Shown here one piece after another: positions 3,780-25,427 of a stretch of 60,936 nt of DNA (position 1 is the first letter of the stretch; each line of letters opens with the position of its first letter). Source of the stretch: a virus (lineage: Duplodnaviria > Caudoviricetes); the IMG/VR virus record IMGVR_UViG_3300028592_000010, positions 1-60,936 of that record; one strand, written 5' to 3'. The notes under the pieces are model-generated. The model was not told the DNA's origin. It did not search any database and saw only the letters and a list, made by a program, of their open reading frames with translations. The translations under genes and the position numbers were made by a program.

Positions 3780-4466
3780 GTGACCGACCAGCAGGCCAGC
3801 GACCGGGTGACCCACGACCTCAGCGTGGAGTACGTCGACATCGACACGGTGGCCGAGCACCCGGACAACCCCCGGCGCGGCAACACGCAGGTGATCGTTG
3901 AGTCGCTGCGCCGCACCGGTCAGTACCGGCCCCTGATCGTTTCGGCTGCGACGGGCTACGTGGTGGCCGGCAACCACACGCTGCGCGCGGCGCGGCTGCT
4001 CAACTGGGACCGGATCGCGGTCACCTGGCTGCACGGCCTGTCCGAGGAGGCAGAGCACCGCATCCTGGCCGTGGACAACCGGGCTGCCGACCTCGGCGAC
4101 TACGACACCGAGGCACTGATCGCCCTGCTGGACAACCTCGGCGAACTGGAGGGCACCGGCTACTCGGTGGACGACCTGGAGACCTTGCAGGCCCTGGCGG
4201 GCCGCGAGGTCACGTTCGCGGCGGGCGACACCGACGCGCACTACTCGGGCACCGACGCCGAGCGGGCCGAGCGGGCCGAACAGATCGGCAACTACCAGCC
4301 GCTCAAGGCGCAGGGTCTGGCCGAGGTCATCCTGGTGCTCACCGAGGCCAAGAAGACGCAGATGATCGACTGGCTCCAGGTGCTCCGCGCCAAGTGGGGC
4401 GACCAGATGACCAACGGGGAGTTGGTCTACGCGGCCGTGGCTCGCGCGGTGGACGCCGAACAGTGA
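3780..4466 (+). CDS. ParB-N-like domain protein (DNA-modification associated)
   Basis: HPDNPRRG...IVESLRRTGQYRPLIV...VVAGNHTLRAA...DNR. Confidence 0.85.
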   Translation: MTDQQASDRVTHDLSVEYVDIDTVAEHPDNPRRGNTQVIVESLRRTGQYRPLIVSAATGYVVAGNHTLRAARLLNWDRIAVTWLHGLSEEAEHRILAVDNRAADLGDYDTEALIALLDNLGELEGTGYSVDDLETLQALAGREVTFAAGDTDAHYSGTDAERAERAEQIGNYQPLKAQGLAEVILVLTEAKKTQMIDWLQVLRAKWGDQMTNGELVYAAVARAVDAEQ

Positions 4467-5410
4467 CCTCGTACGAGATCGGAGAGCGGGCGGGGCGCAT
4501 CGCCAAGCTGTGGACCCCGGGCGTGATCGACGACTACGCCCGGTTCCACTGGCTCGCCCTGGAGACTGGCGACGTGGACCCGGTCTACCCGGTGCTGCGC
4601 AAGCTGGAGATGGGCGTCAGCGACCTGGTGTGGCTGTCCTTCCTGCACGTCGCCTACTACGACCTCGGCTCGGCCCTGCGCGCCTTCGCCCGGCTGTCGT
4701 GGCGCCCCACCGAGGAGGTCCCCAACGCGGTGCTGCACTACCCGTGCGGCACCGAGCGGCGGGCGCACCGCGACCCGAGCCAGTTGCTGCGCCACCTGGA
4801 ATCCCTGCGGGCGCTGGCCGATCACTTCCAGGGCTTGCACCGTTTTGTGACAAGCGCCACCAGCTACGGGGACCTGTTCGGCAGGGTCATCTCCATCTGG
4901 GGTAACGGCCGGTGGGCCGCCTACAAGACCTGTGAGTTGCTGGCCTACGCGTTGGACCGGCCCGAGTGGGAGCCCACCGACATGGGGCACGCCCACTCCA
5001 CCGGCCCCCGCAAGGGGCTCGCGCTGATCTACGGCGGGCGCCTGCCCGAGGGCAACGGGCCCGCCGCCATTCACACCCTCAACACCTTGTCGGGCTGGCT
5101 CGTCAACGAGTTGGGCCGCCGCGACCTGGTTGCCAGTCAGGCGACCGCCGAGACCACCCTGTGCGACTTCCACTCCCTGGCTGGGGGCCGCTACTACGTG
5201 GGGCACGACATCGACCAGATGGGCATGCAGATCCGGCGCGGGCTGGAGACGGAGCGCCTGCACTACGAGGAGGGCCAGTCCGCCGCCCTGCGGTTCCTGC
5301 TCGACGCCAACCAGCGTGCGAGCGCGACGTTCGCCCATTGGGGCAACGACATCGACAAGGGCCGCCGACAGGTCTACAAGTTGACGGGAGAGATCCTTGA
5401 TCCACGTTGA
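4463..5410 (+). CDS. Amino acid:DNA transferase-like protein (aGPT-Pplase2 family, HhH-glycosylase-like fold)
   Basis: DVDPVY, AYY, GTERRAHR, GRWAAYKxxE, GPRKGL, ETTLCDFHSL..GRYYVGHDID; GTGA overlap with the ParB gene. Confidence 0.75.
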   Translation: MTSYEIGERAGRIAKLWTPGVIDDYARFHWLALETGDVDPVYPVLRKLEMGVSDLVWLSFLHVAYYDLGSALRAFARLSWRPTEEVPNAVLHYPCGTERRAHRDPSQLLRHLESLRALADHFQGLHRFVTSATSYGDLFGRVISIWGNGRWAAYKTCELLAYALDRPEWEPTDMGHAHSTGPRKGLALIYGGRLPEGNGPAAIHTLNTLSGWLVNELGRRDLVASQATAETTLCDFHSLAGGRYYVGHDIDQMGMQIRRGLETERLHYEEGQSAALRFLLDANQRASATFAHWGNDIDKGRRQVYKLTGEILDPR

Positions 5411-6314
5411 GGGGATGGGCTGGTTCGGCGCGGTGACCGCGCTCGCGCTGGAGCGGGCCGGCATCGAGTTCACCTGGTCCGACATCGACTCGCCCACCCA
5501 GGCCTGGAAGGCCTCCACCGGCATCGTCTACCCGGCCGGAGACGACCGCACCGAGCGGGAGCGCCTGTCCTGGACCCGGTGGTGGCTGAGTGACGACTGG
5601 CTGCCCGACCACACGGTGCGGCCCGTCACCTACGGCTTCACCCACAAGGCGCCACCGCATGGCGGCAAGTACGAGTGGGCCCGCTGGTCCTACGTGCCCG
5701 AGGTGAAGATCGCCGCCAAGCACGCCTTCGCGGTCGATGTGCAGGCCATCGTGGTCGAGGCCCGTTCCCGCTTCGCCGAGCGGCGCTGCGAGTACGTGGA
5801 CCCGGCGCGGTCGAAGATTGTCGCTCACGGCGCGCGCCGAGCGGTCGGCTGGGTGTGGGGCTGGAGCCGCAAGGTCAACCTGCGCTGGCCCGGTGGGGTT
5901 GAGGCGGACGGCATGAGCCTGTACGGCAAGGTCCACCGGTTCGGCCTCTGCTACGCCTACCCGGTGGGGGCCCAGCCGGGCTGGTGGTGGGCCGGCTCGG
6001 CCCTGGTCAACGAGAGGCGCCCCCGGGAGCGCGACGGGCGCGAGTTGGCCGACTACTACGAGCGCTGGCGCTCCGACTTCGCCCGGCTCTACCCCGGAGT
6101 GGACGTGGTGGAGTCCGGTCATGAGCCCATCCGGCAGGGCTGGCGGCCCAAGCCAAGCGAGAGCGATCCGGCGCTGCTGGGACTCACCGACACGCGGTGC
6201 GTCTTCCCGGCCCTGTGGCACTCGGGCGTGCGCTGGGCGCCCTCGTTGGTGGAGGGAGCGGTGCAGTGGGCAACTCGCGTGACCTCTTCTACGTCATCGG
6301 CCCTCCAGGCGTAG
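5397..6314 (+). CDS. FAD-dependent oxidoreductase/lyase-like protein
   Basis: N-terminal Rossmann motif IHVEGMGWFG, AWKASTG, GWRP, C-terminal HSGVRWAP (DAO/glycine oxidase-like). Confidence 0.7.
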   Translation: MIHVEGMGWFGAVTALALERAGIEFTWSDIDSPTQAWKASTGIVYPAGDDRTERERLSWTRWWLSDDWLPDHTVRPVTYGFTHKAPPHGGKYEWARWSYVPEVKIAAKHAFAVDVQAIVVEARSRFAERRCEYVDPARSKIVAHGARRAVGWVWGWSRKVNLRWPGGVEADGMSLYGKVHRFGLCYAYPVGAQPGWWWAGSALVNERRPRERDGRELADYYERWRSDFARLYPGVDVVESGHEPIRQGWRPKPSESDPALLGLTDTRCVFPALWHSGVRWAPSLVEGAVQWATRVTSSTSSALQA

Positions 6315-6838
6315 GCAAGTCCTCCCTGATGGCCGCCCTCACGGTGCGCTGCCACCGCTGGCCGAACGCCAAGCCGTTCCGCTACGACCTGCTCCGGGGC
6401 CCCTCGGGCTACGAGTTCGTCGAGTTGGGCGGTCAGCGCATCGGCGGGTTCCCCGGCACGGACGGCATGTCGATGTCGGTCCAGCCCCGGGTGGAGGAGT
6501 GGCTGCACCAGACCCGGGTGCCGCTCGTCCTCGGTGAGGGTGACCGCCTGGGCAACACCAAGTTCTTTGAGGCGGCGGTGCACGCAGGGTGGCGCCTGAA
6601 CGTTGTCGCCCTGATGGCCGACCGTAAAGAGTTGGATCGGCGCTGCCGGGAGCGCGGCTCGGAACAGTCCGAGACGTGGCGCAAGGGCCGGTTCACGAAG
6701 GTGGCCAACGTGACCAACTGGCTGACCACGGCCCATCCCGGCAGCGTCCGGCTGGTCACGGCCGACCGAACCCCGGGCACGCTGGTCGCGGCCCTGCGAC
6801 CGAGCTACCCGGACATCTTCGCCCTGCTGGAGGACTGA
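6266..6838 (+). CDS. P-loop nucleotide kinase
   Basis: Walker A GPPGVGKS, GTDGMSMSVQP, EGDRL, RCRERGSEQ lid; GGAGGG RBS at 6251 before GTG 6266. Confidence 0.8.
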   Translation: MGNSRDLFYVIGPPGVGKSSLMAALTVRCHRWPNAKPFRYDLLRGPSGYEFVELGGQRIGGFPGTDGMSMSVQPRVEEWLHQTRVPLVLGEGDRLGNTKFFEAAVHAGWRLNVVALMADRKELDRRCRERGSEQSETWRKGRFTKVANVTNWLTTAHPGSVRLVTADRTPGTLVAALRPSYPDIFALLED

Positions 6839-9388
6839 TGGAGCACTGGGGATTCTGGGCCCGGGCCATGGTGATCGTGCTCGTCGCCTGGGCGACCTGC
6901 GTGGCGCTGCTGATGGCCATGGTCCGCGTGGCGATGCTCGGCGCGGCGCTGACCTCGCTGGCCGCCCGGTCGGTGCGCGTCTGATGGAACGCCTGCTGCT
7001 CGGCCTCGTCAACGCGCTCATCGTCGTCATGCTGCTGGCCGTCATCCTCATGCTGGGCCTGGCCGTCCACTTCGCCTACACCGAGAGTTGGGGATGCTCG
7101 TGACCACCGTGTTCGTCATGATCGGCAACAGCGACGACAAGCTCTCCCAGGACGACTGGCACCAGTTCTGGGGCGAGACCTCGCAGGTGCTGCTGCCGGT
7201 GATCAAGGCCACGTACGGCGTCTGGTTCTCCGACCCGGTGGCGCGCTACCAGAATGCCTGCTGGGCGTTCGAGCCCTGGCCGCAGCACGAGTCCGAGGCC
7301 AAGGTCCGCCTGGCCCGTCTCGCCAGCAAGTGGGGCCAGGACTCGGTGGCCTGGGCGGAGGCCGAGGACACTGTGTTCCTCGGGCCCGCGTGGCTGTCCC
7401 ACCTCGACCCCGAGGAGGCCGAGGCCCTCGACGACGGGCACGCCTGGGCGGGCCTGGGGACCGAGGAGGGCAAGTGAGCCCACTTCAGGACTTCGACGAG
7501 ACCACCCCGAGGCCCGTGATCATCGTCTGCGAGACCGGCTCGGAGATGGACGGCATCCAGCGGGCGATCCTGCTGCTCATGAAGTACCCGGGCGTGCTCG
7601 CCGAGTCCGCCGCCGGCTGGATGTTGGTGCCCCGCCAGGCGGCCACCCACATCTCCGTTTCACGTGAAACCAAGGAGGAGAAGTGAGGCTGTTCCATCTG
7701 GAGCGCACCGAGGACGTGACGGGCGTGTCGGGCACGGGCGTGGTCGCCCAGGGCGTCGAGTTCGACGACCTCACGGTGGTCATCCGCTGGGGAAGCGCCA
7801 CCCCCTCCACGGTGGTCTGGGACCACATCGGCGACGCGATGGTGGTCCACGGCCACAACGGCCTGACCAAGCTGGTCTGGGACGACCGGGGCGACTGGTC
7901 GTGACCAGCGAGTTCCTCGCCCGGTTCGGCGACGCCCTGGCCGAGCAGGCCGCCAAGCCGCCCAGCGACCCCGTGGCGGCGCTCTCCTACGTCGCCTTCG
8001 CGGCCCTGGCCGTCGCGCTGGGCTGCCCGCCCGAACGGGTCGGAGACCTCCACCGGGACATGCACGCCCTGGCCCTGCCGGCTGGACCGCAGGCGGCGGT
8101 GGACCAGTTCCGCACCCACATCGACCTGTTGAGGGAGGACGGGCTGTGACCGAGCCCGAGGAGGAGTGGGTCCAGTTCGCCAAGGGGACCGTACTGTGCC
8201 CCTGGTGCAACGCCGAGGTGCCCGTGCCGGTGCTCGGGCGCATGTTCAACGACGACGAGGGCCGGCTGGCGATGGCCACCAAGCCCGACCTGACCGAGGT
8301 GTGGGCGCACGCCTGGACCCACGAGGAGGACACCGATGCCTAGCCCAACCGAACGGCTCACCGCCAACCTGACCGACGCCCTCGGGGCAGACGGGGCCCG
8401 GAAGGCGGCCCTCGTCATGGCGGACCTGTTGCTGGAGTTCGCCCAGCACGCCCTGGACCGGGGCAAGGCCTTCGCCCCATTCACCCAGGAGGCGGCCACC
8501 TTCGCCACGCTGTCCGGTTCGTACGTGGGCATGGCCGAGACCATTCACCGAATTGGGTGCGACGCCACCGACTGTGACTTCCTGGTCAACCTGGGGGACC
8601 TCCTCGCCCTGGCCCGCATGTGATGCAGACCCCGTTTCGGGAGACCGACGCCCTCCTGGCCGCCCTCGACAACGACGACGAGGCCCTGCTGGGCCACCTG
8701 GCGAGGATGCACGACGGCGAGGTGAGCAACCTTCGTCGGGCCGCCCTCAACATGGCCTTCGCCGCGCGGGAGGAGTTGGACCGCCGCTGGCAGCAGGCCA
8801 TGCAGGTCAAGCGCGCCATGCAGGTTAAGGCGCTGGACGACGTGGCCGATGACTGACCCACTGCTGGCGGCCCTCGACCGGTGCGAGCACGGGCGCCACC
8901 GGGCCGACCGCTGCTTCGACTGCCCGGACCAGTGGAGCACGGGCAACCTGTTCCTGCCGCCCGGCACCCGGATCGGCACCAACCTGTACGGCGACCCGAT
9001 CGTGGCGCCCGAGCAGGACAATCACGAGCGCGGCCAGCCAGCGAACTGGGTCGAGGGTGGGGCATTCAAGTGACCGACTGGGAAGCGCTGACCGCGCTCC
9101 AGATCATTGACCGGCTGCGCGACACGATCGTGGCCATGGGCCAGTACGTGGCCGGCCTGGAGTCCGAGGCACTGGAGACCGAACGCTCGGTGGCGTTCTG
9201 GACCGAGGAGGCCCGGCGCTACGCGGGCAACGCCGACTACTGGCGGGCGCGGACCACCGAGGCGGAGCGGGTCATACAGGCCGCGCGCGCCATGCCGGGG
9301 CACGAGCCGACCGAGGGGGAGCCCATGTGGTGCTGCCGCCTCCAGGACGCCCTGGCGACCTACGATCAGTGGCGGAAGGGGGGTAGCG

Positions 9389-10270
9389 ATGATCGAGTTG
9401 CGAGTGCGGAGCCGACTTCGCCAGGAGGACCTGCTGCCCAAGACCGGCAAGGTGCTGGGCCCGGCTGACTACGACGTGCTGCTCACCGGCCCCGCCAAGG
9501 TGCTCAAGCCGGACGGCAAGCCACTGTGCGTCTACCTTCCCGGCGCCCTCCGCGAATGGTCGCAGAGTGACACCATCTACGCCATTTTGCACGGGCTACG
9601 CACACACACCACCAACAACCGGGGCATGAGCGGCGGCGCAGGCGTCGACACCTCCCCCAGCGGCAAGCGCTACGCCCAGACCACCGCGTCCACCATCATC
9701 GGCGCCTTCGACCCGAACAGTTACCGCCGCTACTGCCGCCTCACCGCCTGGACCGGGCGCAACCTGCCGCAGTGGGAGGCGCTCCAGCCGTTCCTCGCCG
9801 CCATCGCCGAGCGGATGGCCGAGCACGTTCCCGACCGGCACGGGGCCCAGATGGCCGAGGTCATGCGCACCCAGCCCGAGTGGGTCGTGCCGGGCACCCC
9901 GTTCACCACGGTCACGGTCAACAACACCTACCCGACCGGGATGCACACCGACAAGGGCGACCTCGATGCCGGGTTCTCCACCCTCGCCACACTGCGCCGA
10001 GGCGGCGCGTATACGGGCGGCAACCTGATGTTCCCCGAGTACCGGTGCGCCGTGGACATGCGCGACGGAGACCTGCTGCTCATGGACGCCCACGAGTGGC
10101 ACGCCAACGCCGACATCGTCTGTGCCTGCGGAAACTCCATCCGGGCGATCTGTCCGACGTGCGGGGCGGAGCGCATCTCGGTGGTGAGTTACTTCCGCAC
10201 CGACATGGTCAACTGCAAGGACGCGGCCACCGAGGAACGGCGGGCCGCCGAGTGGTGGGCGAAGCGGTGA
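9389..10270 (+). CDS. TET/JBP-family 2OG-Fe(II) dioxygenase
   Basis: NRG, TPFTTVTVN, HTDKGD (HxD), GGNLMFPEY, HEWHAN (distal H), RISVVSYFR (2OG-binding R). Confidence 0.9.
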   Translation: MIELRVRSRLRQEDLLPKTGKVLGPADYDVLLTGPAKVLKPDGKPLCVYLPGALREWSQSDTIYAILHGLRTHTTNNRGMSGGAGVDTSPSGKRYAQTTASTIIGAFDPNSYRRYCRLTAWTGRNLPQWEALQPFLAAIAERMAEHVPDRHGAQMAEVMRTQPEWVVPGTPFTTVTVNNTYPTGMHTDKGDLDAGFSTLATLRRGGAYTGGNLMFPEYRCAVDMRDGDLLLMDAHEWHANADIVCACGNSIRAICPTCGAERISVVSYFRTDMVNCKDAATEERRAAEWWAKR

Positions 10271-11197: not shown

Positions 11198-12285
11198 TGT
11201 ATGGTCGGGCGAGACTGACGAGAGGGGCGAACGTGACCGCCAGGCGCCGCCAGCAAGGCCTGTACTACGTAACCCGCAGTGGGCTGGAGATCGACCTGCT
11301 CGAACTCGACGCCCTGGACCAGATTCCCTACCCGGAGTGGCCCGGCCTCCAGGCCGCCGCCCGGTGGCTCTCCGACGAGGTGAAGCGGGCCGAGACCGAG
11401 CGGGTGGCGGTGCGCGACGCGGCGTGGAGCGCGGGCCTGCACGACGCCCAGGGCGCCATGGCTCGCCGCCGCCAGCGCCTCGACCCGCTCAACGGCAACT
11501 ACCCGACCGACACACCGAAGCCGTCTGGCTACTACTGCGAAGACTGCCTGGTGTTCGTGCCGGACGGCATCACCCACCCCCGGTGCCAGCCCGAGCTACC
11601 GGCCGAGGTGGGACCGTGACCGAGAGCACCTGGCAGATCCGCCCCAAGCCGGGAATGCCCTCGCTGCATGCCGTCATCAACGACCAGATCTACGACCTCT
11701 CGGAGAACGCCTGGCCGACCGACCCCATGGAGCGCGCCCTGGTGCGGGCCATGGTGATGGAGGTCGCCTCCCGCGCGTCCACGATCCACGTCACCCGGAC
11801 AGCCTGATGGGCGACGTGCTGACCGAGGCGGGCCTGGTGGAGTTGCTGGCCTCCCAGGGCATGGACACCTCCCACCGCACCCCAGCCTGCCGGTGCGAGG
11901 AGTACGAGGAACGCATCGCGGCCCTGGAGGCCGCCGAGGAGTCCTGGGACATCGCGCTGGACGCCAAGGACGACGAGATCAAGCGCCTCCAGGACCGCCT
12001 CCAGGCGGTGGAGAAGTCGCTGCGCGAGATGGCCGAGGCGGCCCGTGGAGACTGACCGGCCCATCACGTGGGTTCGGGCGGGGCCGTTCACCTACAAGGG
12101 GTTGAAGCTGAAGATGGCCCGAGACATGCAGATGACCCATCGGTGCGCGCGGTGCGGCCACGGCACCCCGGCGGGAAGCCTGACCGAGTTGCTGTTCGAG
12201 CCACCTACCGAGTGCCCCAACTGCGGTGGGACGATCAAGGTTCAGGCCTACGTCGGCAAGCCCATCGAGGAGGTGGAGGGGAGCG

Positions 12286-12888
12286 ATGGCCCGGAAGCCA
12301 CCGGAGTATGACGACTCCGACTTGCCCGACATCGGCACCTCGACCACGTCCGAGTTGCGCGGCGCCCTCGGCCTCGTAGCGCAGCCGGACGGACGGACCG
12401 ACAAGGCGTGGCGCAAGCCCAACACCATGAACGCCCGGGAGCTACGCGCGCTGGAGTTGGTGACCGCCGGGGCCACCTACGCCCAGATCGGCGCGGTCAT
12501 GAACATCACCCGGCGCAGCGCCATGGCGCTGGTCGACCGGGCCCTGGGCAAGCGCGCGCTGGAGATCGACTCCCAGACCCGCTCCCAGACCCGGGCTCTG
12601 GTGCTCGACCAGCTTGACCAACTGTGGCGGCGCTGGTGGCCGCTGGCCCTGGGCGACCCGCGCGCCGGCACGCCGCCCGACAAGGACGCGGCCGACGTGG
12701 TGCTGAAGATCCACGACCGGGTGGTGCGCATCCAGGCCCTCGATGCGCCGATCCAGGTCGAGGTCAACGCCGACATCGTGGTCTCCCTGGAGGACCGGGC
12801 CAACCGGCAGGCCAAGATCCTGGCCGACCTGGCCGAGGTGGCAGCCCGCCAGCAGGCGATCGAGGGCGAGTTCCGGGAGGCGTCATGA
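12286..12888 (+). CDS. HTH protein, probable terminase small subunit
   Basis: RALELVTAGATYAQIG HTH followed by QLDQLW..WWP..G...A.DVVLKI.DR..RI..LDAP, an actinophage TerS-like pattern. Confidence 0.55.
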   Translation: MARKPPEYDDSDLPDIGTSTTSELRGALGLVAQPDGRTDKAWRKPNTMNARELRALELVTAGATYAQIGAVMNITRRSAMALVDRALGKRALEIDSQTRSQTRALVLDQLDQLWRRWWPLALGDPRAGTPPDKDAADVVLKIHDRVVRIQALDAPIQVEVNADIVVSLEDRANRQAKILADLAEVAARQQAIEGEFREAS

Positions 12889-13953: not shown

Positions 13954-15945
13954 GACACATGGTCGCGTACACCGCAGTTGTCCAGGCCGAGCAGTGGACC
14001 GGCACCCCCGCCGCCCAGCGCGCCATCGAGGACCTCGTGGCCGCCCAGCGGCGAGGCGGGTCCTATGACCAGGTTCAGGTTGCAGGCGAAGACCTTTGGC
14101 TGACGTGCTCGAACCCAAAGCCCAGCGGCATACCTGTCCCGGTCAACGTGCGCATCGGCGAGTGGCTGGTCTATGGGGATGCGCCCCAGCCGGTCGGTCA
14201 CCCGGCGATCTACGACGACACGACGTTCGTTGCCCGCTACGCCCGGGTGCCAGGCGCATGAGCGGCCACCGCCCGTTCCGCGACCTGCGGCTGGACTGGC
14301 CCCAGCCGTTCGAGGTCCTGGAGCAGTTCTACTACGAGCACGCGCGGCGCATGAGCGTGCTGGCCGACATGGGCTGCACGGTGTGCGGCGACCCGGCCAC
14401 GGTGCTGATCGAGTGGCCCAAGCACGTCTTCTCCGTCTCCCTCGACCCTGGCGCCCTGCGCGAGACCCGGACCATCACCATCACCGAGGAGGTGCGGTTC
14501 CTGTGCGAGATGCACGCTCGGGCCTGACCATCCCGGACGACCAGGCCTGGCACGTCCGGGGCATCCCGACCACCCACCGGGGCCCGTTCAACGACTGGGC
14601 CGCCCGCCCGGATGGGCGGCGCCTGCGGTGCGGGCTGATCATCAACGCCACCTACGTGGCCGGCCCCGCTCCGAGTGGTGAGCCGTGCCCGGAGTGCAGC
14701 CGGTGGACCGATGCGTGAGCGTTCGGGTGTGCGCCTGCGCTACCTTCCCCTGGAGGAGGCGACGAGGCCGCCTACGGGCGGGGTGGTCGAGGTCTACACC
14801 GACCGCTGGTGGGCCCATCAGCCCGGCCTGGGCCTGCTGATGTTCGGCAAGGTGCCGCAGTGGACGCCGAACTCATCTACAACTGCGGGGACTACGTATG
14901 ACCGACGATCGCACCCTTCCCGAGGGCCTGACTCGGGCGATGTTTGACGCCATTCGGGACCTGCGCGAGTGGGTCACCCCGCCGCCGGCCCCGGACGCCG
15001 AGGTGCAGGCGTGGCCGCTGTTCAGCGGCTGGGAGTATGGCGGTGTCTACTGCGCCAAGGACGAGTGCGGCTGCGCGGCCGAGGGCAGTGAACTGATCCG
15101 GGGCGACGACCGGATGGGGGACGAGGCCGAGACCTTCACGTTGGCTGACCTCCACCGCCGCATCGGTGGGGCGGGCCGAGGAGGAGGGGGTGTGATGGGG
15201 CGCGGCCAGACCACTGCCGAGTTCGCGGCCAGCCACGGCCCGAACTGGGTCTACGACGGCGGCCTGCCCGGCGATCCCGGCTGGGTGAGCGACGCGGCGC
15301 GCGAGTTCGGGGACCTGCTCGGCCTGGACGCGGAAGCCCTGGACGACGCTGCGGCGGAGCACGGGTGGGAGTTCCATGACCCGGGCTACGACGAGAAGAT
15401 CCAGCAGCTTGCCCTGACGTGGGGCGAACAGTGAGCAGCCCGGCCGACCGCCTGGCGGATGGGCGGGGCAGCCTGCGCGACCTGGCCGAGTTGGACCAGG
15501 CCCGGGCGGCCACCGTCGAGGACCTGAACCGCCTGCTGGTCGGCTACGCCCAGGCCATGCGCGACCTCGGGCCCGACCGGGCCCACTGCGCCTACGTCAC
15601 CGGCCTGCTGCGTGACTGGGACGAGGTCACCATGGCCTGCGCCCTCGTCGAGGCAGTGGAGCGCCTGGTGCGGCGCCTGGACGAGCAGGGGGCGCGCACC
15701 TAGTCTGGTGTCGTGACAGACACGACGGAGCCATACGACCACGACCCGAACTACGACCCGGCGGCGGCCCGCAAGGCCGAGAAGCACGAGGCCTTCGTGG
15801 CCGAGTACCAGACCCGCTACGGCGGCGCCGGGCGTGACGCCGAGTCGGTGGCCAGAGTCTTCGGCCTGGAGGGCGAGCCGCCCAGCAACGAGGTCGAGGT
15901 GGACCCGGACGCCGAGTCGTCCCCCAACGTCGGGCACAAGTAGCC

Positions 15946-17414: not shown

Positions 17415-17624
17415 GTGATCACCAAGCGCAAGAGCAGCCACTCCGCCGAGAGCGCCAACTGCGTTGCGCTGTGGGACTTCGGCGACGAGGTGGCCCTCGG
17501 CGACACCAAGGGCCCCAACTGGCAGATGGCCTGGTTCGACCGGGCGGCCTGGACCGACTTCGTCCAGGCGGTCGGACGGGGCGAGTTCGACCGGCCACGA
17601 GGCCGTGCTGCGCCGTCTCTGTAA
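17415..17624 (+). CDS. DUF397-family protein
   Basis: RKSSHS..ANCVAL...VALGDTK.P...F..AAW..FV.AV..GEF. Confidence 0.8.
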   Translation: MITKRKSSHSAESANCVALWDFGDEVALGDTKGPNWQMAWFDRAAWTDFVQAVGRGEFDRPRGRAAPSL

Positions 17625-17690
17625 GGTGTGAACGCGAGGGCGCCGCCGAGAGGCCCCTAACCCCCACGGCCCACTCCCCTACGGACCAAC

Positions 17691-17727
17691 GAGAACGGCC
17701 CCGAGCTTGATGCTCGGGGCCGTTCTC
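17691..17727. terminator. 16-bp inverted repeat between convergent units (bidirectional terminator)
   Basis: GAGAACGGCCCCGAGC-ttgat-GCTCGGGGCCGTTCTC. Confidence 0.8.
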
Positions 17728-17744
17728 GGTCCATGACGGGAACG

Positions 17745-17815
17745 GGACCGCACGGGGAGTCGAACCCCGCCTAGGCGCTTTAGAGGCGCTTGTGCTGCCG
17801 ACACACCCTGCGGTC
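17745..17815 (-). tRNA. tRNA with CUA anticodon (amber suppressor)
   Basis: Acceptor GACCGCA/TGCGGTC, D stem GTGT/GCAC, anticodon arm AGCGC-CTCTAAA-GCGCC (one mismatch), T arm CGGGG-TTCGACT-CCCCG. Confidence 0.8.
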
Positions 17816-17839
17816 AAGGCGGTGCCCGAGGTCAAGGCG

Positions 17840-17963
17840 GCTCGGCGCCTTGTTCGGCTGCTCTACCGGGCTGAGCTACCCCACTCCCCGAGGGGAGCGT
17901 GGCGGGATTCGAACCCGCGACCTGCCGATTACCTGTGAAGTAAGCCGGGCCTGCGCACCGAGC
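17840..17963 (-). ncRNA. YrlA-like Y RNA (circularly permuted tRNA mimic)
   Basis: T arm precedes a loop-closed acceptor stem and then a D arm; TCGGC/GCCGA stem; terminal helix GCTCGGTGC/GCGCCGAGC. Confidence 0.7.
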
Positions 17964-18096
17964 ACCACCACCGGACGATCGCCGACACGTGCGGGCCAGC
18001 GAGGTTTCCGGGTACCTCTTGAGTTGTGCACCCGGGGCCACCCGAAGGCGATCTTCCCGCAGCGTCCTATCCACGACCACGTGGCCCGGGCCAACT

Positions 18097-18168
18097 TGGG
18101 GCCCTCCGAGAAATTGCACCTCGCCTTCGCCCCCCGAAGGGCGCGTGCTCTGGTTACACCTGAGGGCC
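18097..18168 (-). tRNA. Degenerate tRNA (6-nt anticodon loop TTCGGG, Pro-like)
   Basis: Acceptor GGCCCTC/GAGGGCC followed by CCA, D stem GTGT/GCAC, stem CGCCC/GGGCG, T loop TGCAATT. Confidence 0.55.
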
Positions 18169-18218
18169 ATGGGGGCCGGTCTGGGCCCGGGGCAAGCTAG
18201 CCTCCCAGACCGGCACCG

Positions 18219-18294
18219 AAACGGGAGTCGGATTCGAACCGACGACCTCCAGCTTATGAGGCTGGCGAGCACAACCGAACTGCTCCATCCCGTC
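18219..18294 (-). tRNA. tRNA with CAU anticodon (Met or Ile2)
   Basis: GACGGGA/TCCCGTT acceptor, GAGC/GCTC D stem, CCAGC-CTCATAA-GCTGG, GTCGG-TTCGAAT-CCGAC. Confidence 0.85.
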
Positions 18295-20239
18295 AGGCGC
18301 CCGTGGAGTCGTTACGGTCCTCCTCGGGCGTGTCGACCCTACCATGACAGGACTTCCCGCGCTTGCGATCCACCTCAGCCTTAGTGCGAGAACTAAGGTG
18401 GTAGCCCCCGGCGACCGGGCACCAGTAGACCCGGCCCTCCTCGGTCGGGGGCAGCCGACTCAGCGCGTGCTTGCCCATCTCGTAGGTGCGGTAGGTGTTC
18501 TTGCGGCACCGCTTGCACTTGGCCTTGTGGTTCCGCATGGACTACGACCACCAGATGTCGCGCTTCACGGCCCTCTCCTTCCGTCGTCTCCAGGTGAGCA
18601 CACCGAACAGTGTGCCCAGGGTCGCACCCAGCACGATGAGCATGTAGCCCATCAGGCGAACGACCTCGACGCGGTCCTGCCAGGTCATCGCCACTTCCTC
18701 CACTTTCGTGCCCGCTTAGGCCGCGTGTGCAGGCGCCTCATGGCGTCGAGGTCGGCCGCGAACACTGCGCCCCGGAATGGGCCCCACTCGCGCGACTTGT
18801 CCGTGTCGGTCCAGTGGTAGTGGCCCCGCCCACCGGTGGCCCGGATGCAGGTCCAGGCGCCGTGGCGCCAGCGGTAGCCCCGCCGGTGCATGCGGCGCCC
18901 TTGCATGTCGACGATGAAGACCCGCCGACGACGGGCGCGGCGGCGCTCACCGTGGTCCATCTGCCGGGGCCGCCAGTACTGGTAGCCCTTGCGCCGGCAC
19001 GGCCTGCGGAACCAGCGGTCGCCCAGGCGGGGATCCTCGCGCCACGCCCAGAGCCGCTTGACGTGGGGCGGCGGTTCTGGGTCGTAGGTGAGGTTGTAGC
19101 GGTAGACGATCACCACTTCACCCGCAGCAGGGAGGCTCGGTGCTCCAGCAACATGCGCAGCACCTCGTCCACGGTGCCGCCGGGCAGGGAGGCCAGCAGC
19201 GCGTTGACGATGGCGCGCGCATCCAGCCGGTGCAGCCTGCGCCCATCCGCCCGGTCGAGGTTGTCCGGCATCGGCATGTCGGCCTCGATGCGCAGGTCCT
19301 CCACCTCCTCGGCGCCGTGTGGCTGGGCCTTCCACACCCAGACCGGCTCGGCGCTCATGGCCGCTTCCAGACCCACCGCCCGGGGCGGCGCGGGTCGGGG
19401 TACGGCACCAGGTCCCACGTGTAGACCAGGTAGCCTGCCGAGCCGAACGCCACCAGGATCAGGAACATCCCTCCGGCGACCGGGTAGGCAATGGGCGCCT
19501 CCTCGCCGAACGTCGTGGACAGGGCGTAGCCGAAGAGGCTGAGCATCGACGCGCCGAACATCGCCATGGCGGTGCGGCGAGGGAAGGGGCGGAACCGGCC
19601 GAACACCGACCGCCAGGCGTCCAGCGCGTAGGCCGGGACGCCGATGGTGATGCCCGCCAGCAGCAGGGCCACCCCAACGTCATGCGCGGTCACCTGTCCT
19701 CACCCCTCTTCTTGGCGATGGCGGCTGCGATGAAGAACGCGGAGAGCGCCCAGGCGATGCTGCAAACGAGGGCGACTCCCTCGACGGCCTCGGGCCAGGT
19801 GTCACTTGCCAGGATCACGGAGCGCCTCCTCGTGCTTGGCGGGCCTGATGGGGCGCTCGGTCCTCCTGGACCACTTGATCTCGGGCCCGCTGGCGAGGAA
19901 CACCAGCCCGAGCAACAAGAAGACCACCGACACGATGGCGGTAGCGGCGACGAACGCTTCGGGCCAGTTCATGGGGACCCTCCTACAGGTCGTGGGCGCA
20001 GAACGGGCAGACGTGGATGTCCTCCACCCGCGTGTTGGCAATGAGGAACGGCTTGCTCACCGAGGGCACCACCTCGGCGGCCATCCGCTCAGCGTGGGCC
20101 TCGATGAGGGCCGCCTCGGTGGGGAACCAGTGGAAGCACTCCCCGCACAGGGTGCCGGTGGTGAGGTCGGTCTGGGGCTCGTCCTCGTTGTGGAAGTGGC
20201 AGTGGTCCTGGTCGCAGGCGCGGGTCGGTTCGTGGGGCA

Positions 20240-20482
20240 TCATGACCTCCACTCGATGCGCAGCCGCCCATCGAGGGCGTCCACCAGGCGGACGAGGGTC
20301 AGCGTCTCGGGCACGACCTCTCCCATTTCGATCTCGCTGATGCTGCTCTGGACGATGCCCGAGATGGCCTCCAGTTCCCGCTGGCTCAGGCCGAGCCGCA
20401 GGCGGCGCAGCTTGAGTTGCTGGCCCAGGAGGCGCACTTCGAACTCGTCGGTCGCGAACGACCCGCGCGGACTGCGGGGCAC
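20240..20482 (-). CDS. XRE-family HTH regulator
   Basis: LGQQLKLRRLRLGLSQRELEAISGIVQSSISEIEMG...P...TL.RL..AL. Confidence 0.85.
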   Translation of the reverse strand: MPRSPRGSFATDEFEVRLLGQQLKLRRLRLGLSQRELEAISGIVQSSISEIEMGEVVPETLTLVRLVDALDGRLRIEWRS

Positions 20483-20893
20483 TACTTCAGCCGCCGGGGC
20501 AGCTTGAGCCGCAGGTCCTCGTAGCGGCGGAACGCCTGCCACCGGTGGGCGTGGCTGGAGACGTTGTAGAACACCAACTGCTCGTTGATCCCGGTCGGGA
20601 CGTACAGGGTGGCGTCGATGAGCCACCAGGTGACCGGCAACGTCCGATTCCAGTACTTCAGGTCCATCGCCCACAACTGCACCCCCACGGGCGAGCCCGT
20701 GCCCGGCGCGTCCTCGGCGGCCTGAACCTGCTGCTCCATACGGCACCGGGCCCACTGCACGTTCCACCAGCGCGGCGAGAATGCCGCGTTGCGCAACTGC
20801 GGGTCGACCTCGTCCACGTAGTCCACGAGGATCTGGCGGGCCCACCGACCGGCCTTCGGCCAAGAGGCCATCCGGCCGGTCTCCAGGTAAGCG

Positions 20894-21247
20894 TCAGTCG
20901 TCATACGAGCCCACCCTGGCCAGCCGTGCCTTCCACTGCCGGGTCAACTCGTTGTAGGCCGAGAAGTCCGAGGCCGAGAAGCCGTGCCGGACGGACCATG
21001 AGGTGGAGCCGATCCAGTGGTCGGCGGCCGGCCCGTCGTAGTTCGCGGTCACCCGGTGGTAGGCCCGGGCCCGAATGTCCTCGGTCTTCCCGCCCGAGGC
21101 CCAGCCCAGCACGCAGTTGCACGGCTGCACCAGGTCGAGGTCGTCCATGTGGTCGAGCACGTTGTCCAGCTTGAGCCCGGCCAGGCCGCCGTGCTTGCGC
21201 AGCCAGCGCAGGCCCCGCTCGATCTGCTTGCTGTAGTCGACGCTCAC
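20894..21247 (-). CDS. Hypothetical protein, paralog of the neighbouring gene
   Basis: Shares G..WL, LD, CVLGW.SG, RA.AYH, GF and Y..LT..WKA.LA with 21244-21648. Confidence 0.7.
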   Translation of the reverse strand: MSVDYSKQIERGLRWLRKHGGLAGLKLDNVLDHMDDLDLVQPCNCVLGWASGGKTEDIRARAYHRVTANYDGPAADHWIGSTSWSVRHGFSASDFSAYNELTRQWKARLARVGSYDD

Positions 21248-21648
21248 CGGTGGTCCTCCTCGCACAGCGGCGCCAGGGCCGCCTTCCACTCGGCCGTGAG
21301 GGCCTCGTAGTCGGCCAGGCTGTGGGGCTCGTCGTCGCCGAGGCGGAAGCCCCGGTTCGCCGCCCAGCGGTAGCCGACGCTGCGATCGAAGCCCTGGGCG
21401 CGGATGCGGGCGTGGTAGGCGTGGGCGCGGTCGACCTCACTGCCGAACCCGCTGGACCAGCCGAGCACGCACGACTCGGGCATGTTCACGTCCAACTCGT
21501 CGAGGTGGACGCACAGGTTCTGGAGGAGGTGGTCATGCAAGGGCCCCTCGGTGATGAGCCAGGCGATGCCGGCCTGCACCCGCTCGGCGTAGCTCGCGTC
21601 GGTGTTGGGCCGGTCCTGTTCCGTGTAGACGGCAAGGTCGCTGTCCAT
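21244..21648 (-). CDS. Hypothetical protein, paralog of the neighbouring gene
   Basis: GAAGGGAG RBS; motifs shared with 20894-21247. Confidence 0.7.
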   Translation of the reverse strand: MDSDLAVYTEQDRPNTDASYAERVQAGIAWLITEGPLHDHLLQNLCVHLDELDVNMPESCVLGWSSGFGSEVDRAHAYHARIRAQGFDRSVGYRWAANRGFRLGDDEPHSLADYEALTAEWKAALAPLCEEDHR

Positions 21649-21986
21649 GTCCGTGCTCCCTTCGGTTTGTGTCCCCCGACCATACACGATCCCCCGAAAC
21701 CGATGAAGCCCCCCCACGTCATCTCGCGATGCGTGAGGGGGCTTCATGGTCCTACAGGATGATCGTCGCCTGGACCCGCTTGACCTCCACGAGCCCGTCC
21801 CACTTGCCCGAACCCAGGTAGTTCTCGGTCGTCCGGAGTTCCCGCAGGGCGTCCTTGAGCGCCTCAGCGGTGGTGTTCCAGTGGTACTCGGCCTGCCAGT
21901 CGTCCACGTTCACGTCGAGGTCGAGGGTGACGGTGATCTTCACGGCCGTGCTCCCTTCAGTGCTCCCGCCCGGTAGCGGGGAGACG

Positions 21987-22057
21987 TGGACCCGGCGGGA
22001 TTTGAACCCGCATCCTCCGGCCGATCGCCGGTGCTCTACCAGTGAGCTACGTGGCCC
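21987..22057 (-). ncRNA. tRNA-like element with non-canonical 5-nt anticodon loop
   Basis: TAGCTC-ACTGGTA-GAGC D arm, CCGGC-GATCG-GCCGG, GCGGG-TTCAAAT-CCCGC, bulged acceptor stem. Confidence 0.7.
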
Positions 22058-22381
22058 TGGCCGCCCCCGAGGGGGCGGGTGGTGCTACACCTCGTCCAGC
22101 CAGGACCCGGTGGTCTTGCTGTGCTCGGGCACGACGGCCCAGGAGTTGGCGTCCGTGGTCAGTTCGACCTGGTTGCCGCACTTGGTGCAGATGCGGGTGA
22201 GCGTCCGGTTCGGCACGCGCCGGTCGGCGCTGTCGGTGACCTTGACGCGCCGACCGCCCTGCGTGCACCGTCTGGCCGCCATGTACTCGTCCCGCATCCG
22301 CTGGCCATCGGCGACTACGTCCGACCAGTCCAGGTCTCGCATGATGCGCTCCCTTCGTTGGGCCCTCCGGTAGGGCCTCCG

Positions 22382-22449
22382 CGCCGTCCGAGGTGTCGAA
22401 CCCCGGTGCCTGTCTGGTCTGACCATACACGCACGCACCTGCGACAGCA
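22382..22449 (-). ncRNA. tRNA-like element lacking a D arm
   Basis: Acceptor TGCTGTC/GACGGCG, T arm CGGGG-TTCGACA-CCTCG, single long internal hairpin. Confidence 0.45.
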
Positions 22450-22457
22450 ACCCTCAG

Positions 22458-22646
22458 CTACTTCTTGCCACGGCCACCAACGCCGTAGCCCTCGGTGTCA
22501 GGGTCATCGGTGGAGCGACCCTTGCCGCCCCCCGAGGCCGGCGACTTGCCCGTACCCTTGCCCGGCCGACCGCCCGGCGGGATGTCGCGACCCCGCTTGG
22601 AGTCGTCCGTGTTGCCCACGCCGTAGCCTTCGTGTTCCTGAGCCAT
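22458..22646 (-). CDS. Small Gly/Lys-rich peptide with a repeated EGYGVG motif
   Basis: AAGGGG RBS, ATG 22646; EGYGVG and TDD each occur twice. Confidence 0.55.
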   Translation of the reverse strand: MAQEHEGYGVGNTDDSKRGRDIPPGGRPGKGTGKSPASGGGKGRSTDDPDTEGYGVGGRGKK

Positions 22647-22693
22647 CCGTTGGCCCCTTTCTTCCGTGCTGGGCCAGGCGGCGCCTGGCCTCG

Positions 22694-22739
22694 TCCCCAC
22701 CTCGGGGCTCGAACCCGAAGCGCTCCACCAGCGGTGGGG
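22694..22739 (-). ncRNA. Mini tRNA-like element (acceptor + T arm, no anticodon arm)
   Basis: CCCCACC/GGTGGGG stem, GCT-GGTGG-AGC hairpin, TCGGG-TTCGAGC-CCCGA. Confidence 0.55.
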
Positions 22740-22780
22740 TAGAACCAGGGGCCCGCTGAGCGCGGGCCCCTGGGTTTCGC

Positions 22781-23557
22781 TCACTCCGCCAGTTCCTCTT
22801 CCATCTCGGCGATGGTCGTGGAGGCGTACGTGTCGATGATCCGCTTGGCCGCGTTGCGACCAATACCGCCTGCCGCTGCCAACTGGGCGACGGTAAGACC
22901 CGGGTTCGCCGCGTAGAGGCGGCGCGCGTTCGCTGCGTTGATCCGAGCCTGCTTGGCGCGAGTCCGCTGGGCGGCCTCGCTACTGGCGCTGCTCTCGGTC
23001 GGGGTGGACACCTGCTGAGTGATGCTCAACTCCAGGGCCTCGATCTTGGCGAAATCGGGGTTCTGGGACGCGACCCGCACCGCCTGGCTCATCGGGATCA
23101 GTACGACAGCGACGCCGAACAGAACTCGAATCAGAACAGGCGCGGGAGCCAGGACGTTGACCGCCCCGCTCACGCCAACCGGGAAGAGCATCACGCTGAA
23201 CGCGGTGCGCTTCGCGGTCCTGGACGCGGCCACAGCGGCCATCGTCCGGATGCAAATCAAGATCAGGTAGTCCACTGCGACCGGGATGCCGAAGGCACCA
23301 GCGATCAGAGTGAGCGACTCCAGCCAACCGATCATTACGGCAGCAGCGCCGCCGGTGGTCGGGAAGTGGAGGGGAACCAGACCGAGGATGAACGCGATCT
23401 GGTGAGGCATGCTTACCCCGAGGGCGATCTTGGTGACCGTCTCGGCGTTCCGCGCGTTGCGTCGGATGTTGCTAAGCGACTCTTCGGCGGCCGTCTTCGC
23501 GTGCTCAGCGGCGAAGATCGAAGCCTGCGTGACGTGCTGGCTCATGACGACTCCCAT
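22781..23557 (-). CDS. Membrane protein with C-terminal HTH (DUF2637/Spd-like)
   Basis: About four hydrophobic segments followed by NPGLTVAQLAAAGGIGRNAAKR; more A/T-ending codons than its neighbours. Confidence 0.55.
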   Translation of the reverse strand: MGVVMSQHVTQASIFAAEHAKTAAEESLSNIRRNARNAETVTKIALGVSMPHQIAFILGLVPLHFPTTGGAAAVMIGWLESLTLIAGAFGIPVAVDYLILICIRTMAAVAASRTAKRTAFSVMLFPVGVSGAVNVLAPAPVLIRVLFGVAVVLIPMSQAVRVASQNPDFAKIEALELSITQQVSTPTESSASSEAAQRTRAKQARINAANARRLYAANPGLTVAQLAAAGGIGRNAAKRIIDTYASTTIAEMEEELAE

Positions 23558-23596
23558 TCGTCTTGAGTGCCGATCACCCCGGTAGGTGATCGATCG

Positions 23597-23717
23597 TGAC
23601 CTCGGCGGGACTCGAACCCGCTCCGCTGTCTCGCCCGCCCCGCCGGTACGGGGGGCTTGATTACGGGCCTGGCGCCCGACTGACGTATCTGTGCGGCTGC
23701 AACCTGCTGCCGAAGCC
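23597..23717 (-). ncRNA. Enlarged tRNA-like element
   Basis: Acceptor GGCTTCG/CGAGGTC, T arm GCGGG-TTCGAGT-CCCGC, expanded central domain. Confidence 0.45.
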
Positions 23718-23867
23718 TCGGGCCCGGGGGGAGTTTCCCGGGCAGACCGCGTTCTCTCAGTGGCGCCTGGTGGCTGCTCTCGTGAGGTGGGTGCGGTGAC
23801 CCCTGCGACTGTGAGCGTCGGATCCAGTTGTCAAGATTCAAGTTCCCCCGTTTTGCTGTATACCCTA

Positions 23868-23896
23868 AGTATACAGCCTCCCCATACGCCTGTCAA
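23868..23896 (-). promoter_or_regulatory. Sigma70-type promoter for the leftward unit
   Basis: TTGACA-N17-TATACT on the - strand. Confidence 0.85.
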
Positions 23897-23996
23897 CCCA
23901 GACCAGACAAGGAAGTGTCCAGTTCTGGACAGAACGGTTGCGGCGACCTTGGGGGTTACGCTGCTGGTCAGCACTTAGAACCGAGGGGGCCGCCCG

Positions 23997-25427
23997 GTGA
24001 GTCTGTCTGCCAAGATGCGCCTGGCCCTGCTGCCCCCGGCGCTGCGCCGCGCCTGGCTGTTGGACCAGGAGGAGTGGGTCTTCCTGGACGTGGAGGCTGA
24101 CGCCTGGTGGTGGACGGCCCGGCCCGAGCAGATGGCCCCCGAGGGTGACTGGTTCATCTGGCTGCTACTCACCGGCCGAGGGTTCGGGAAGACCCGCTCG
24201 GGCGCCGAGTGGCTGGTGGAGCAGTTGCTGCGCTATCCCCGCGACCGCCACGGCAACCCGACCGAGTGGGTGGTCATCGGCCACACCCTGACCGACGTGC
24301 GGGCGTTCTGCATCGAGGGCCCCTCGGGGATCCGGGCCTGCCTCAACCGGCGCAAGATCGTGCACCACTACCAGAAGGCGCCCAAGCCGGTCATCCGCAT
24401 CGGCGGTGGGGAACAGGTCATCTGGTTCGAGGGCGCGGACAACGAGGACACGGGCCGTGGCTACACGGCGGCGGGCGCGTGGCTGGACGAGTTGGGGAAG
24501 TGGCGCTACACCGAGGCCGTGTGGCGCGGCGGCATCATGCCCTCACTGCGCGCCGACCTCCCCGGCGGCGGGCGGCCCCGAGCGGTCGTCACCACCACCC
24601 CCAAGTCGATCAAGCTGCTCAAGACGTGGGTGAAGCGCGCACGCGAGGGCGACACCACCATCCGGCTCACCACCGGCTCCACGTTCGAGAACTTCGCCAA
24701 CCTCTCGCCCAGCCAGTTGGCCGAGTTCCGCAAGGAGTACGAGGGCACGACCCTGGGCCGGCAGGAGTTGCACGGTGAACTGCTGGACGAGGTCGAGGGC
24801 GCGCTGTGGTCGCACGCCATCATCGAGAAGTACCGCGTCAAGCGCGACGAGGTGCCCGGGCTGCACAACATCGTGGTGGGCGTAGACCCGGCCGGCACCG
24901 GCACCGGCGACGAGATGGGCCTGGTGGCGGTCGGGCGGGCCGAGAACGACGAGGACTACGTGCTGGCCGACTGGTCGATCCGCATGGCGGGCCGACCGGC
25001 GGCGCGGCGCGCGTGGCGCCTGTTCCGGGCCGTGGACGCCGACCTGCTGGTCTACGAGGACAACCTCGGCAAGGAGTGGCTGACCCAGGTGCTCAGCGAC
25101 GCCTACAAGGAGATGCAGCACGACGGGGAGTTCCCGCCCGGCGGCGCCCCGCCGATGAAGGCGGTTGTGGCCATGAAGGGCAAGCGGCTGCGGGCCCAGC
25201 CAACCGCCATGCGCTACGAGCAGGGCCGCGTGCACCACGTCGGGACGTTCGCCGAACTGGAGGACCAGCAGGCCACCTGGGTGCCCGACGACGACCCCGA
25301 CAGCCCGGACCGGGTGGACGCCCTGGTCCACGCCCAGGCGTACCTGCGCTCCCGGGAGCGCTTCGCCTCGGAGATCCACGAGCCCGAGGGAACGCTGGAG
25401 CGCGCGGGCGCCTACATCGGCGGCTGA
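23997..25427 (+). CDS. terL: Terminase large subunit
   Basis: GRGFGKT Walker A, WLDE Walker B, VTTTP, VGVDPA nuclease motif, SPDRVDA. Confidence 0.95.
   Translation: MSLSAKMRLALLPPALRRAWLLDQEEWVFLDVEADAWWWTARPEQMAPEGDWFIWLLLTGRGFGKTRSGAEWLVEQLLRYPRDRHGNPTEWVVIGHTLTDVRAFCIEGPSGIRACLNRRKIVHHYQKAPKPVIRIGGGEQVIWFEGADNEDTGRGYTAAGAWLDELGKWRYTEAVWRGGIMPSLRADLPGGGRPRAVVTTTPKSIKLLKTWVKRAREGDTTIRLTTGSTFENFANLSPSQLAEFRKEYEGTTLGRQELHGELLDEVEGALWSHAIIEKYRVKRDEVPGLHNIVVGVDPAGTGTGDEMGLVAVGRAENDEDYVLADWSIRMAGRPAARRAWRLFRAVDADLLVYEDNLGKEWLTQVLSDAYKEMQHDGEFPPGGAPPMKAVVAMKGKRLRAQPTAMRYEQGRVHHVGTFAELEDQQATWVPDDDPDSPDRVDALVHAQAYLRSRERFASEIHEPEGTLERAGAYIGG

Follow-up and report, generated by a model that had tools for sequence, protein, structure and literature searches.

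Results

A leftward gene block with five tRNA-like elements

The virus record IMGVR_UViG_3300028592_000010 (Duplodnaviria; Caudoviricetes) is 60,936 bases long and rated complete, with a G+C content of about 70% throughout; the whole of this stretch was analysed and is referred to here as the window. The majority of its genes run rightward, including those for the terminase large subunit (TerL, from 23997), the portal, the major head and tail proteins and the tape measure. A leftward block, running from about 23900 to 17690, contains 16 small genes and all of the tRNA-related sequences (Table 1). Five of these, elements A to E, resemble tRNAs in which the decoding half is altered or lost, and they are the subject of this study. 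A previous sequence-only reading of the window had described them as anticodon-defective tRNA mimics on the minus strand of one leftward transcript. All five were found at the places that it gave, and the promoter that it put at 23896 corresponds to a promoter-like site close to the consensus. The first part of the block reads E, gene 1, D, gene 2, C, gene 3, B, gene 4, with this promoter-like site at its start and a long hairpin at its end.

Table 1. Features of the leftward block, in window coordinates and in the order of leftward reading
Feature	Position	Strand	Description
Promoter-like site of the leftward unit	23868-23896	-	TTGACA-17-TATACT, near-consensus (11/12 matches); 0.3 sites in shuffles
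9+9 palindrome	23855-23877		Overlaps the promoter-like site
Element E	23597-23717	-	121 nt, cloverleaf-like, in the leader: 7-bp acceptor, small D-like hairpin, 75-nt branched middle, canonical T arm, discriminator A
Hairpin after E	23570-23593	-	9 bp, UACCGG loop; 3 nt past the E discriminator, followed by ribosome-binding site (RBS) and start codon
Gene 1	22781-23545	-	254 aa, no family match; hydrophobic middle by reading; relatives in L015 and L016
Hairpin before D	22745-22773	-	12-bp GC hairpin after the gene 1 stop, ending 5 nt before D
Element D	22694-22739	-	46-nt tRNA top half: 7-bp acceptor, 14-nt linker, T arm, discriminator A; neither D nor anticodon arm
Hairpin after D	22672-22690	-	Starts 3 nt past the D discriminator, upstream of the gene 2 RBS
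Gene 2	22458-22646	-	62 aa, glycine-rich, no family match
Element C	22381-22449	-	69 nt: 7-bp acceptor, no D arm, one long irregular hairpin, then T arm
Hairpin after C	22361-22377	-	6 bp, ACCGG loop; upstream of the gene 3 RBS
Gene 3	22085-22342	-	85 aa, cysteine pairs, no family match
Hairpin before B	22061-22078	-	7-bp GC hairpin, ending 4 nt before B
Element B	21987-22056	-	Near-complete cloverleaf; 5-nt 'anticodon' loop where the model expects 7; two non-standard acceptor pairs
Hairpin after B	21965-21980	-	UACCGG loop; upstream of the gene 4 RBS
Gene 4	21752-21943	-	63 aa, no family match
Long GC hairpin, then TATGGT box	~21705-21745	-	After gene 4; by reading, absent from the consensus scan calls
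tRNA-Met (CAU)	18218-18294	-	Canonical; ARAGORN; Rfam 60.3 bits
Element A	18096-18168	-	tRNA-sized: 7-bp acceptor, D-like arm without GG, UUCG-type hairpin in place of the anticodon arm
YrlA-like module	17834-17948	-	T arm, UUCG-type hairpin and D arm in permuted order; 38.3 bits (gathering score 69), E 8.6e-6
tRNA with CUA anticodon	17744-17815	-	Amber-suppressor type; ARAGORN; Rfam 40.1 bits
Closing hairpin	17690-17728		Perfect 17-bp hairpin that closes the leftward block

The altered middles are likewise as described in that reading: a 6-nt loop in A (counted in the register that gives a perfect stem), a 5-nt loop in B, no D arm in C, no anticodon arm in D and an enlarged domain in E. The core of the long hairpin of C is a palindrome containing a -10-like TATGGT. 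The acceptor pairs at all seven positions in E, D and C and at five of seven in B. Retention of both acceptor and T arm, which had been claimed for all five, holds for E, D, C and B and only loosely for A, where the T loop is non-canonical, with a G at the U55 position. A 7-nt anticodon loop with U33, kept between orthologues, is found in none of the five: the loop of A is 6 nt long against 4-5 nt in the relative L006 (see below), D has no such arm, and other domains take its place in C and E.

At the Rfam gathering score only tRNA-Met and B are matched (B with 52.6 bits, the gathering score of the tRNA model RF00005 being 29 bits). Allowing E ≤ 10 adds the CUA tRNA and the YrlA-like module, and even then E, D, C and A have no tRNA match in Rfam. 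ARAGORN calls three genes, all on the minus strand; among the five elements it calls only B, as 'tRNA-Asp (atc)', and misses E, D, C and A. Because tRNA finders miss or misname such elements, top-half tRNA mimics are probably under-counted in phage genomes. No tmRNA was called by ARAGORN, nor by Rfam in the window. The predicted fold of E has a z-score against shuffles of only -1.0, stability alone being uninformative in DNA of 70% GC.

T arms are more frequent than expected by chance

T-arm hairpins were searched for with the pattern N5-TTCRANN-N5', using 100 shuffles as the control. There are eight genome-wide, compared with a mean of 0.64 and a maximum of 4 in the shuffles. Seven of them lie on the minus strand between 17753 and 23621 (at 17753, 17902, 18227, 21995, 22389, 22702 and 23605), and the eighth, at 13922 on the plus strand, is poor and lacks the GG. 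The motif GGTTCRANNCC has 10 matches where 1.13 are expected, a number reached by none of the 100 shuffles; the three matches outside the leftward block have no stem and are in coding frames, where they form D-W-F-D/E codons. Since both the hairpin and the motif counts exceed those of the shuffles, and the copies outside are stemless, the T arms of E, D, C and B are real features and chance is excluded. The t-element motif GGTTCRANYCC is present in these four elements and absent from A.

Related phages keep the acceptor/T-arm helix

Related loci were collected by searching viral and metagenome contigs with TerL and gene 1. The closest, L006 and L015, are one contig (TerL 76% identical; referred to below as L006), and it has syntenic counterparts of all five elements, denoted by primes, together with an extra one, X', at 6905-6972. 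L001 (TerL 75%) has one element of the D type and, at 456-487 and 193-224, two bare minihelices. Each minihelix is 32 nt long, with the 7-bp acceptor leading directly into the T arm to give a perfect 12-bp minihelix, followed by an A. The D-type elements of the three phages measure 46, 48 and 71 nt. The more distant L023 and L024 (TerL 51-54%) carry rightward arrays of aberrant tRNA-like RNAs. Some have 'anticodon' arms capped by GNRA loops (T arms at 9264 in L024 and 14221 in L023), and others carry a D-loop insert of 34 nt or an anticodon-region insert of about 125 nt (8982-9087 and 9298-9492 on the plus strand of L024; ~14500-14630 on the plus strand of L023). The larger insert is kept in both L023 and L024, and an inner hairpin within it shows a compensatory change.

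Among 29 T arms taken from the window, L006, L001, L023 and L024, a set that includes true tRNAs and two YrlA-like modules, 19 abut a fully paired 7-bp acceptor, against 61 of 609 displaced controls in which the 3' strand was shifted by 9-69 nt. The base following the discriminator is mostly C and then G, in mimics and true tRNAs alike.

Comparison of orthologues, which the sequence-only reading had proposed as a check, revealed double changes in three of the elements and no broken pair in the predicted stems compared. Of the 36 pairs of E, two are changed on both sides and two on one side relative to L006 (9554-9675); a slide of the partner strand by 1-3 columns leaves 37-58% of cells paired, none with a double change. 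C differs from its orthologue (L006 7888-7956) at both sides of five of 26 pairs and at one side of three, and A (L006 3621-3696) has only one-sided changes, at three of 24 pairs. For D (L006 8624-8694; L001 857-904) the acceptor strands, by reading, differ at three of seven positions and are still complementary; across the three phages four of the 12 acceptor and T-stem pairs are changed on both sides, one T-stem pair going from U-A to C-G. The orthologue of B has the same stem with an unrelated 7-nt loop. A is 93.4% identical to its orthologue over 76 nt, compared with 75.3% over the 1.2-kb stretch of leader and gene 1, and in the middle of E the two phages agree completely over stretches of about 38 and 36 nt, the identity of the flanks being about 75%.

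What is conserved is the acceptor/T-arm helix, the T loop and the discriminator, the decoding half being freely variable. Middle domains that are lost, enlarged or capped by UUCG or GNRA loops, on stems that appear to be kept through compensatory changes, do not look like random decay. The suggestion of the sequence-only reading that the T arm is retained by selection is in this respect supported, by the structure-preserving substitutions, the bare minihelices of L001 and the tetraloop-capped arms.

Pattern searches in viral contigs found little beyond these phages. An exact pattern for the core of E was matched on the L006 contig only, and a degenerate minihelix pattern on the L001 contig only, plus one locus that is not a minihelix. 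A covariance model built from the two L001 minihelices could not span the inserts that the larger elements carry, so that a joint alignment was out of reach; the top new match to it, at 10496-10522 of L035, looks by reading like coding sequence and was discarded.

L006 also differs from the window by an extra cassette (6860-7500, minus strand, corresponding to 21940-22060 of the window) that consists of a gene of about 170 aa and X' and lies between B' and the orthologue of gene 4. Because the homology breakpoints fall in or at the end of the T arm, the alignment suggests that cassettes may be gained or lost by recombination between elements.

The elements stand at a fixed distance before start codons and are flanked by hairpins

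The placement of the elements was compared for 12 that are not tRNAs, four in the window, five in L006 and three in L001. In all 12 a hairpin starts 1-5 nt past the discriminator and is followed by an RBS of the GGGAG type. The next start codon lies 36-51 nt from the discriminator in 11 of the 12 and 72 nt from it in the other, where a promoter-like palindrome intervenes. On the upstream side, E, D, B, D', B' and D'' (the D-type element of L001) are each preceded, at 0-5 nt, by a hairpin of -18 to -31 kcal/mol. The hairpin following E has an orthologue in L006 (9527-9550) whose stem is kept through changes on both strands.

Hairpins with (U)ACCGG loops are a recurrent feature of leftward genes, lying 12-25 nt ahead of the RBS and including one at 37824-37841 on the minus strand, and one also lies within E (23638-23653). 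They are conserved in L006, and the loop in L001 is AACCGG. Such hairpins could serve for the binding of a regulator or simply for protection of the 5' end.

Discussion

Candidate processing signals in an early mRNA

The acceptor stem stacked on the T arm is the part of a tRNA that is read by RNase P, RNase Z and the CCA-adding enzyme, and the decoding half is dispensable to all three. Since the part conserved in the elements is this recognition unit, and since it has a fixed, hairpin-flanked placement before start codons, the most economical reading, to which we give close to an even chance, is that E, D, C and B are processing signals of the t-element kind in the early leftward mRNA, with cleavage itself inferred. 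RNase P and RNase Z signals had also been proposed in the sequence-only reading; the anatomy (the retained acceptor/T-arm helix, the fixed distance to the start codon and the flanking hairpins) agrees with putative cuts by these enzymes. A, which lies in the terminal RNA cluster, is less clearly a processing signal. The proposed single transcript is plausible from E to B and is not established for A, because a strong hairpin after gene 4 (~21705-21745) and -10-like TATGGT boxes mean that A need not share a transcript with B to E; this hairpin and the TATGGT box beside it are a possible end of a first unit and start of a second.

In such a scheme, host RNase P would cut at the 5' side of the acceptor and leave an upstream mRNA ending in the GC hairpin that precedes most of the elements. 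A cut of the RNase Z type past the discriminator would then give a downstream mRNA beginning 1-5 nt before the conserved hairpin, followed by the RBS and the start codon, and so provide it with a short, hairpin-protected 5' untranslated region (UTR). The excised tRNA-shaped RNAs, of 32-121 nt, would be by-products, possibly with a role of their own, for which the 75-nt middle of E would be the best candidate. No phage-borne CCA enzyme was found in the genome. Public sequencing runs were searched with 17600-24000 of the window and no RNA run was listed, a result that counts neither for nor against the scheme.

Several observations weigh against this reading. In the acceptor of B two pairs are mismatched in the window, and the L006 stem is imperfect to a similar degree, so B would be a poor substrate. 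Within its central hairpin C carries a -10-like box together with a palindrome that is also present in L001, there lacking a T arm; some of C may work on DNA. The UTR modules that follow E, C and B share UACCGG loops and an RBS and look paralogous; part of the constant spacing may be inherited and not independently selected. Each set of orthologues comprises only two or three sequences, and in a within-pair shuffle control 114 of 500 shuffles score as high for E, a weak outcome, and 18 of 500 for C, a moderate one. The arrays of L023 and L024 stand in stretches without a gene in the open reading frame (ORF) list filtered by third-position G+C (GC3), and not between genes, so that cis punctuation cannot be the sole role in the wider clade. 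G001 (TerL 69%) and G002 have no dispersed elements at the equivalent sites, and the elements are therefore dispensable; G001 does carry a cluster of tRNA-Met, tRNA-like and YrlA-like sequences.

Alternative explanations

The position of the L023 and L024 arrays away from listed genes would be accounted for if the small tRNA-shaped RNAs themselves were selected, acting in trans to occupy, as sponges or decoys, host factors with an affinity for the acceptor and T arm, or using the tRNA frame as a scaffold for an insert such as the middle of E. The near-identity of the E middle between phages, the YrlA-like module in the same block and the conservation of T-loop bases even where there is no D loop for them to pair with all point in this direction. 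The reading leaves unexplained the 36-51-nt distance to the start codon and the flanking hairpins; a partner did not come to light, Ro60/TROVE is absent from the phage genome, and nothing there is complementary to the conserved single-stranded parts of E beyond chance. We regard it as possible, if rather unlikely; tRNA-modifying toxins, tRNA-end-directed defence enzymes and machinery of the Ro60/PNPase type are candidates for the factors that would be bound. Decoys for anticodon nucleases, which the sequence-only reading had offered as its second possibility, are not supported and are an unlikely version of it, the anticodon loops being absent or not conserved (5 nt in B against the unrelated 7 nt in L006). 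More doubtful than the trans-acting reading as a whole is that this phage lineage uses the tRNA frame as a general expression device, in which the cuts would yield both stabilised, hairpin-capped mRNAs and trans-acting, tRNA-scaffolded small RNAs directed against host tRNA-binding proteins such as acceptor-end-directed toxins and defence enzymes. If true, the laboratory 'tRNA scaffold' would have its counterpart in nature, and these small RNAs, with E and its near-invariant 75-nt insert foremost, would form a new class of counter-defence RNA in phages.

Explanations in which tRNA shape has no present use fit less well than either processing or RNAs acting in trans. The palindrome with a -10-like TATGGT in C, which is related to that at the main promoter, the additional gene-plus-element cassette of L006 with its breaks in homology at the T arm, and the presence or absence of elements among close relatives would all suit hairpins working on DNA or transcription, such as attenuators or terminators without a U tract, promoter or operator sites, or joints for cassette recombination, whose likeness to tRNA is historical. 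Neither a terminator nor a protein-bound palindrome has a purpose for the TTCRA loop consensus, though, and this is kept in all seven copies; acceptor strands up to 89 nt apart co-vary, a consensus scan gave no terminator at the sites of the elements, and the genome, rated complete, has no integrase or resolvase. We consider these explanations improbable. An attP core derived from the 3' half of a tRNA was also considered and rejected, as no tyrosine or serine recombinase was found and the elements carry both acceptor strands and occur in several copies. Less probable than action on DNA or transcription, and very unlikely, is that the elements have no function and are either tRNA pseudogenes in decay or what is left of an earlier tRNA cluster. 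B and A do resemble tRNAs with small defects, the acceptor of B is mismatched in both phages and several relatives lack elements. Against this, the compared stems of E, C and A contain compensatory changes and no broken pair, reduction has been precise (L001 has two perfect 12-bp minihelices, and three phages have D-type top halves), conservation is higher in the elements than in the adjacent stretch of leader and gene 1, and the elements are placed regularly before start codons.

Comparison with known tRNA-like signals

Acceptor/T-stem minihelices are laboratory model substrates of RNase P and the CCA-adding enzyme. D and the two minihelices of L001 resemble them in having a stacked helix of 7 + 5 bp, a T loop and a single-stranded discriminator, and differ in being natural, conserved and embedded in mRNA; they have no encoded CCA, the discriminator being mostly followed by CG.

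The closest parallel for processing signals inside mRNAs comes from the t-elements of plant mitochondria, which were found by a search with GGTTCRANYCC, have ends that match mapped mRNA termini and are released as small RNAs with non-encoded C or A (PMC1920247, Forner et al. 2007). The phage elements are like them in being non-decoding, in their conserved T-arm motif and acceptor-like stem, and in adjoining protein genes on the same strand (PMC1920247). They differ in being carried by a phage, where the enzymes would be bacterial, and in having predicted ends where those of the plant elements are mapped. They also form a denser series, with one element before each of four consecutive genes, and are more reduced (the bare minihelices of L001) and paired with conserved flanking hairpins.

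YrlA of M. smegmatis is described as a tRNA mimic that is cut by RNase P RNA and receives CCA (PMC4201824, Chen et al. 2014). The elements share with YrlA (RF02553) the mimicry of tRNA, YrlA having T and D arms, and a YrlA-like module lies in the same leftward block. They do not match the YrlA model, which has a permuted arm order and a Ro-binding stem. The YrlA-like module is kept in three related phages: in the window, in L006 (3501-3572, minus strand, 39 bits) and in L034 (~4820-4880, plus strand). Ro60 (TROVE, PF05731) has no match in the whole window genome, while control genomes respond, and a partnership with Ro60 is not supported as the TROVE gene is absent.

Another tRNA-like module within a long transcript is that of MALAT1 mascRNA and MEN-beta (RF01684), where it is an RNase P/Z signal that sets the transcript end; unlike the present series, that system is eukaryotic and nuclear, with a single 3'-end module. 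The only match to RF01684 here is weak (26.9 bits against a gathering score of 42.5) and falls on the tRNA-CUA gene, not on the five elements. A search of the full-text literature, with subscription journals outside its reach, found no description of phage-operon elements of this kind, and tRNA-shaped punctuation of mRNA is known in plant mitochondria and apparently not in phages.

If the cuts proposed for E, D, C and B occur, they would represent a version in a bacterial virus of the 'tRNA punctuation' of organelles, by which the phage could set how stable each early mRNA is, and its dosage, with no nuclease of its own. The natural series from a full cloverleaf to a bare minihelix is in effect a ready-made deletion series for the requirements of bacterial RNase P and RNase Z in vivo.

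Other features of the phage

No close cultured phage was found: tblastn of TerL against 50,697 phage records gave nothing above 40% identity, and megablast and blastn of the DNA against the same records gave tRNA-Met-like matches only. In bacterial and archaeal genomes TerL has only relatives of 34-40% identity, in metagenome-assembled genomes of Hyphomicrobiales and Rhodobacteraceae.

Family searches with the 16 leftward proteins named only one, a helix-turn-helix (HTH) regulator encoded at 20240-20482. Related palindromes of the type CTGTAT...ACAG lie over the -10 of the main promoter (23855-23877) and over the TATGGT in C (~22405-22430, minus strand), and L001 has a palindrome of the C type without a T arm at ~805-830 on the minus strand. 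These palindromes look like operator sites.

The tRNA with the CUA anticodon is conserved, with an orthologue in L006 (3963-4034, minus strand, 62.6 bits). TAG is the stop codon of 14 of the 75 predicted genes. In four cases a TAG-ended gene shares its frame with the gene that follows (15419-15703, 18542-18703, 22085-22342 and 37-249), which may be chance at 70% GC.

Elsewhere in the genome, on the plus strand between 3780 and 10270, is a gene set of the thymidine-hypermodification type: a ParB-like protein (3780-4466), an amino acid:DNA transferase (4394-5410), a P-loop nucleotide kinase 3 (6197-6838) and a Tet/JBP dioxygenase (9107-10270). A 220-aa protein encoded at 12226-12888 on the plus strand matches phrog_645 (E 4.9e-17) and is only tentatively an 'RNase E' by the label of that family; its Pfam matches, to HTH / sigma region 4, are weak, and the protein would be of interest if the phage tunes RNA decay.

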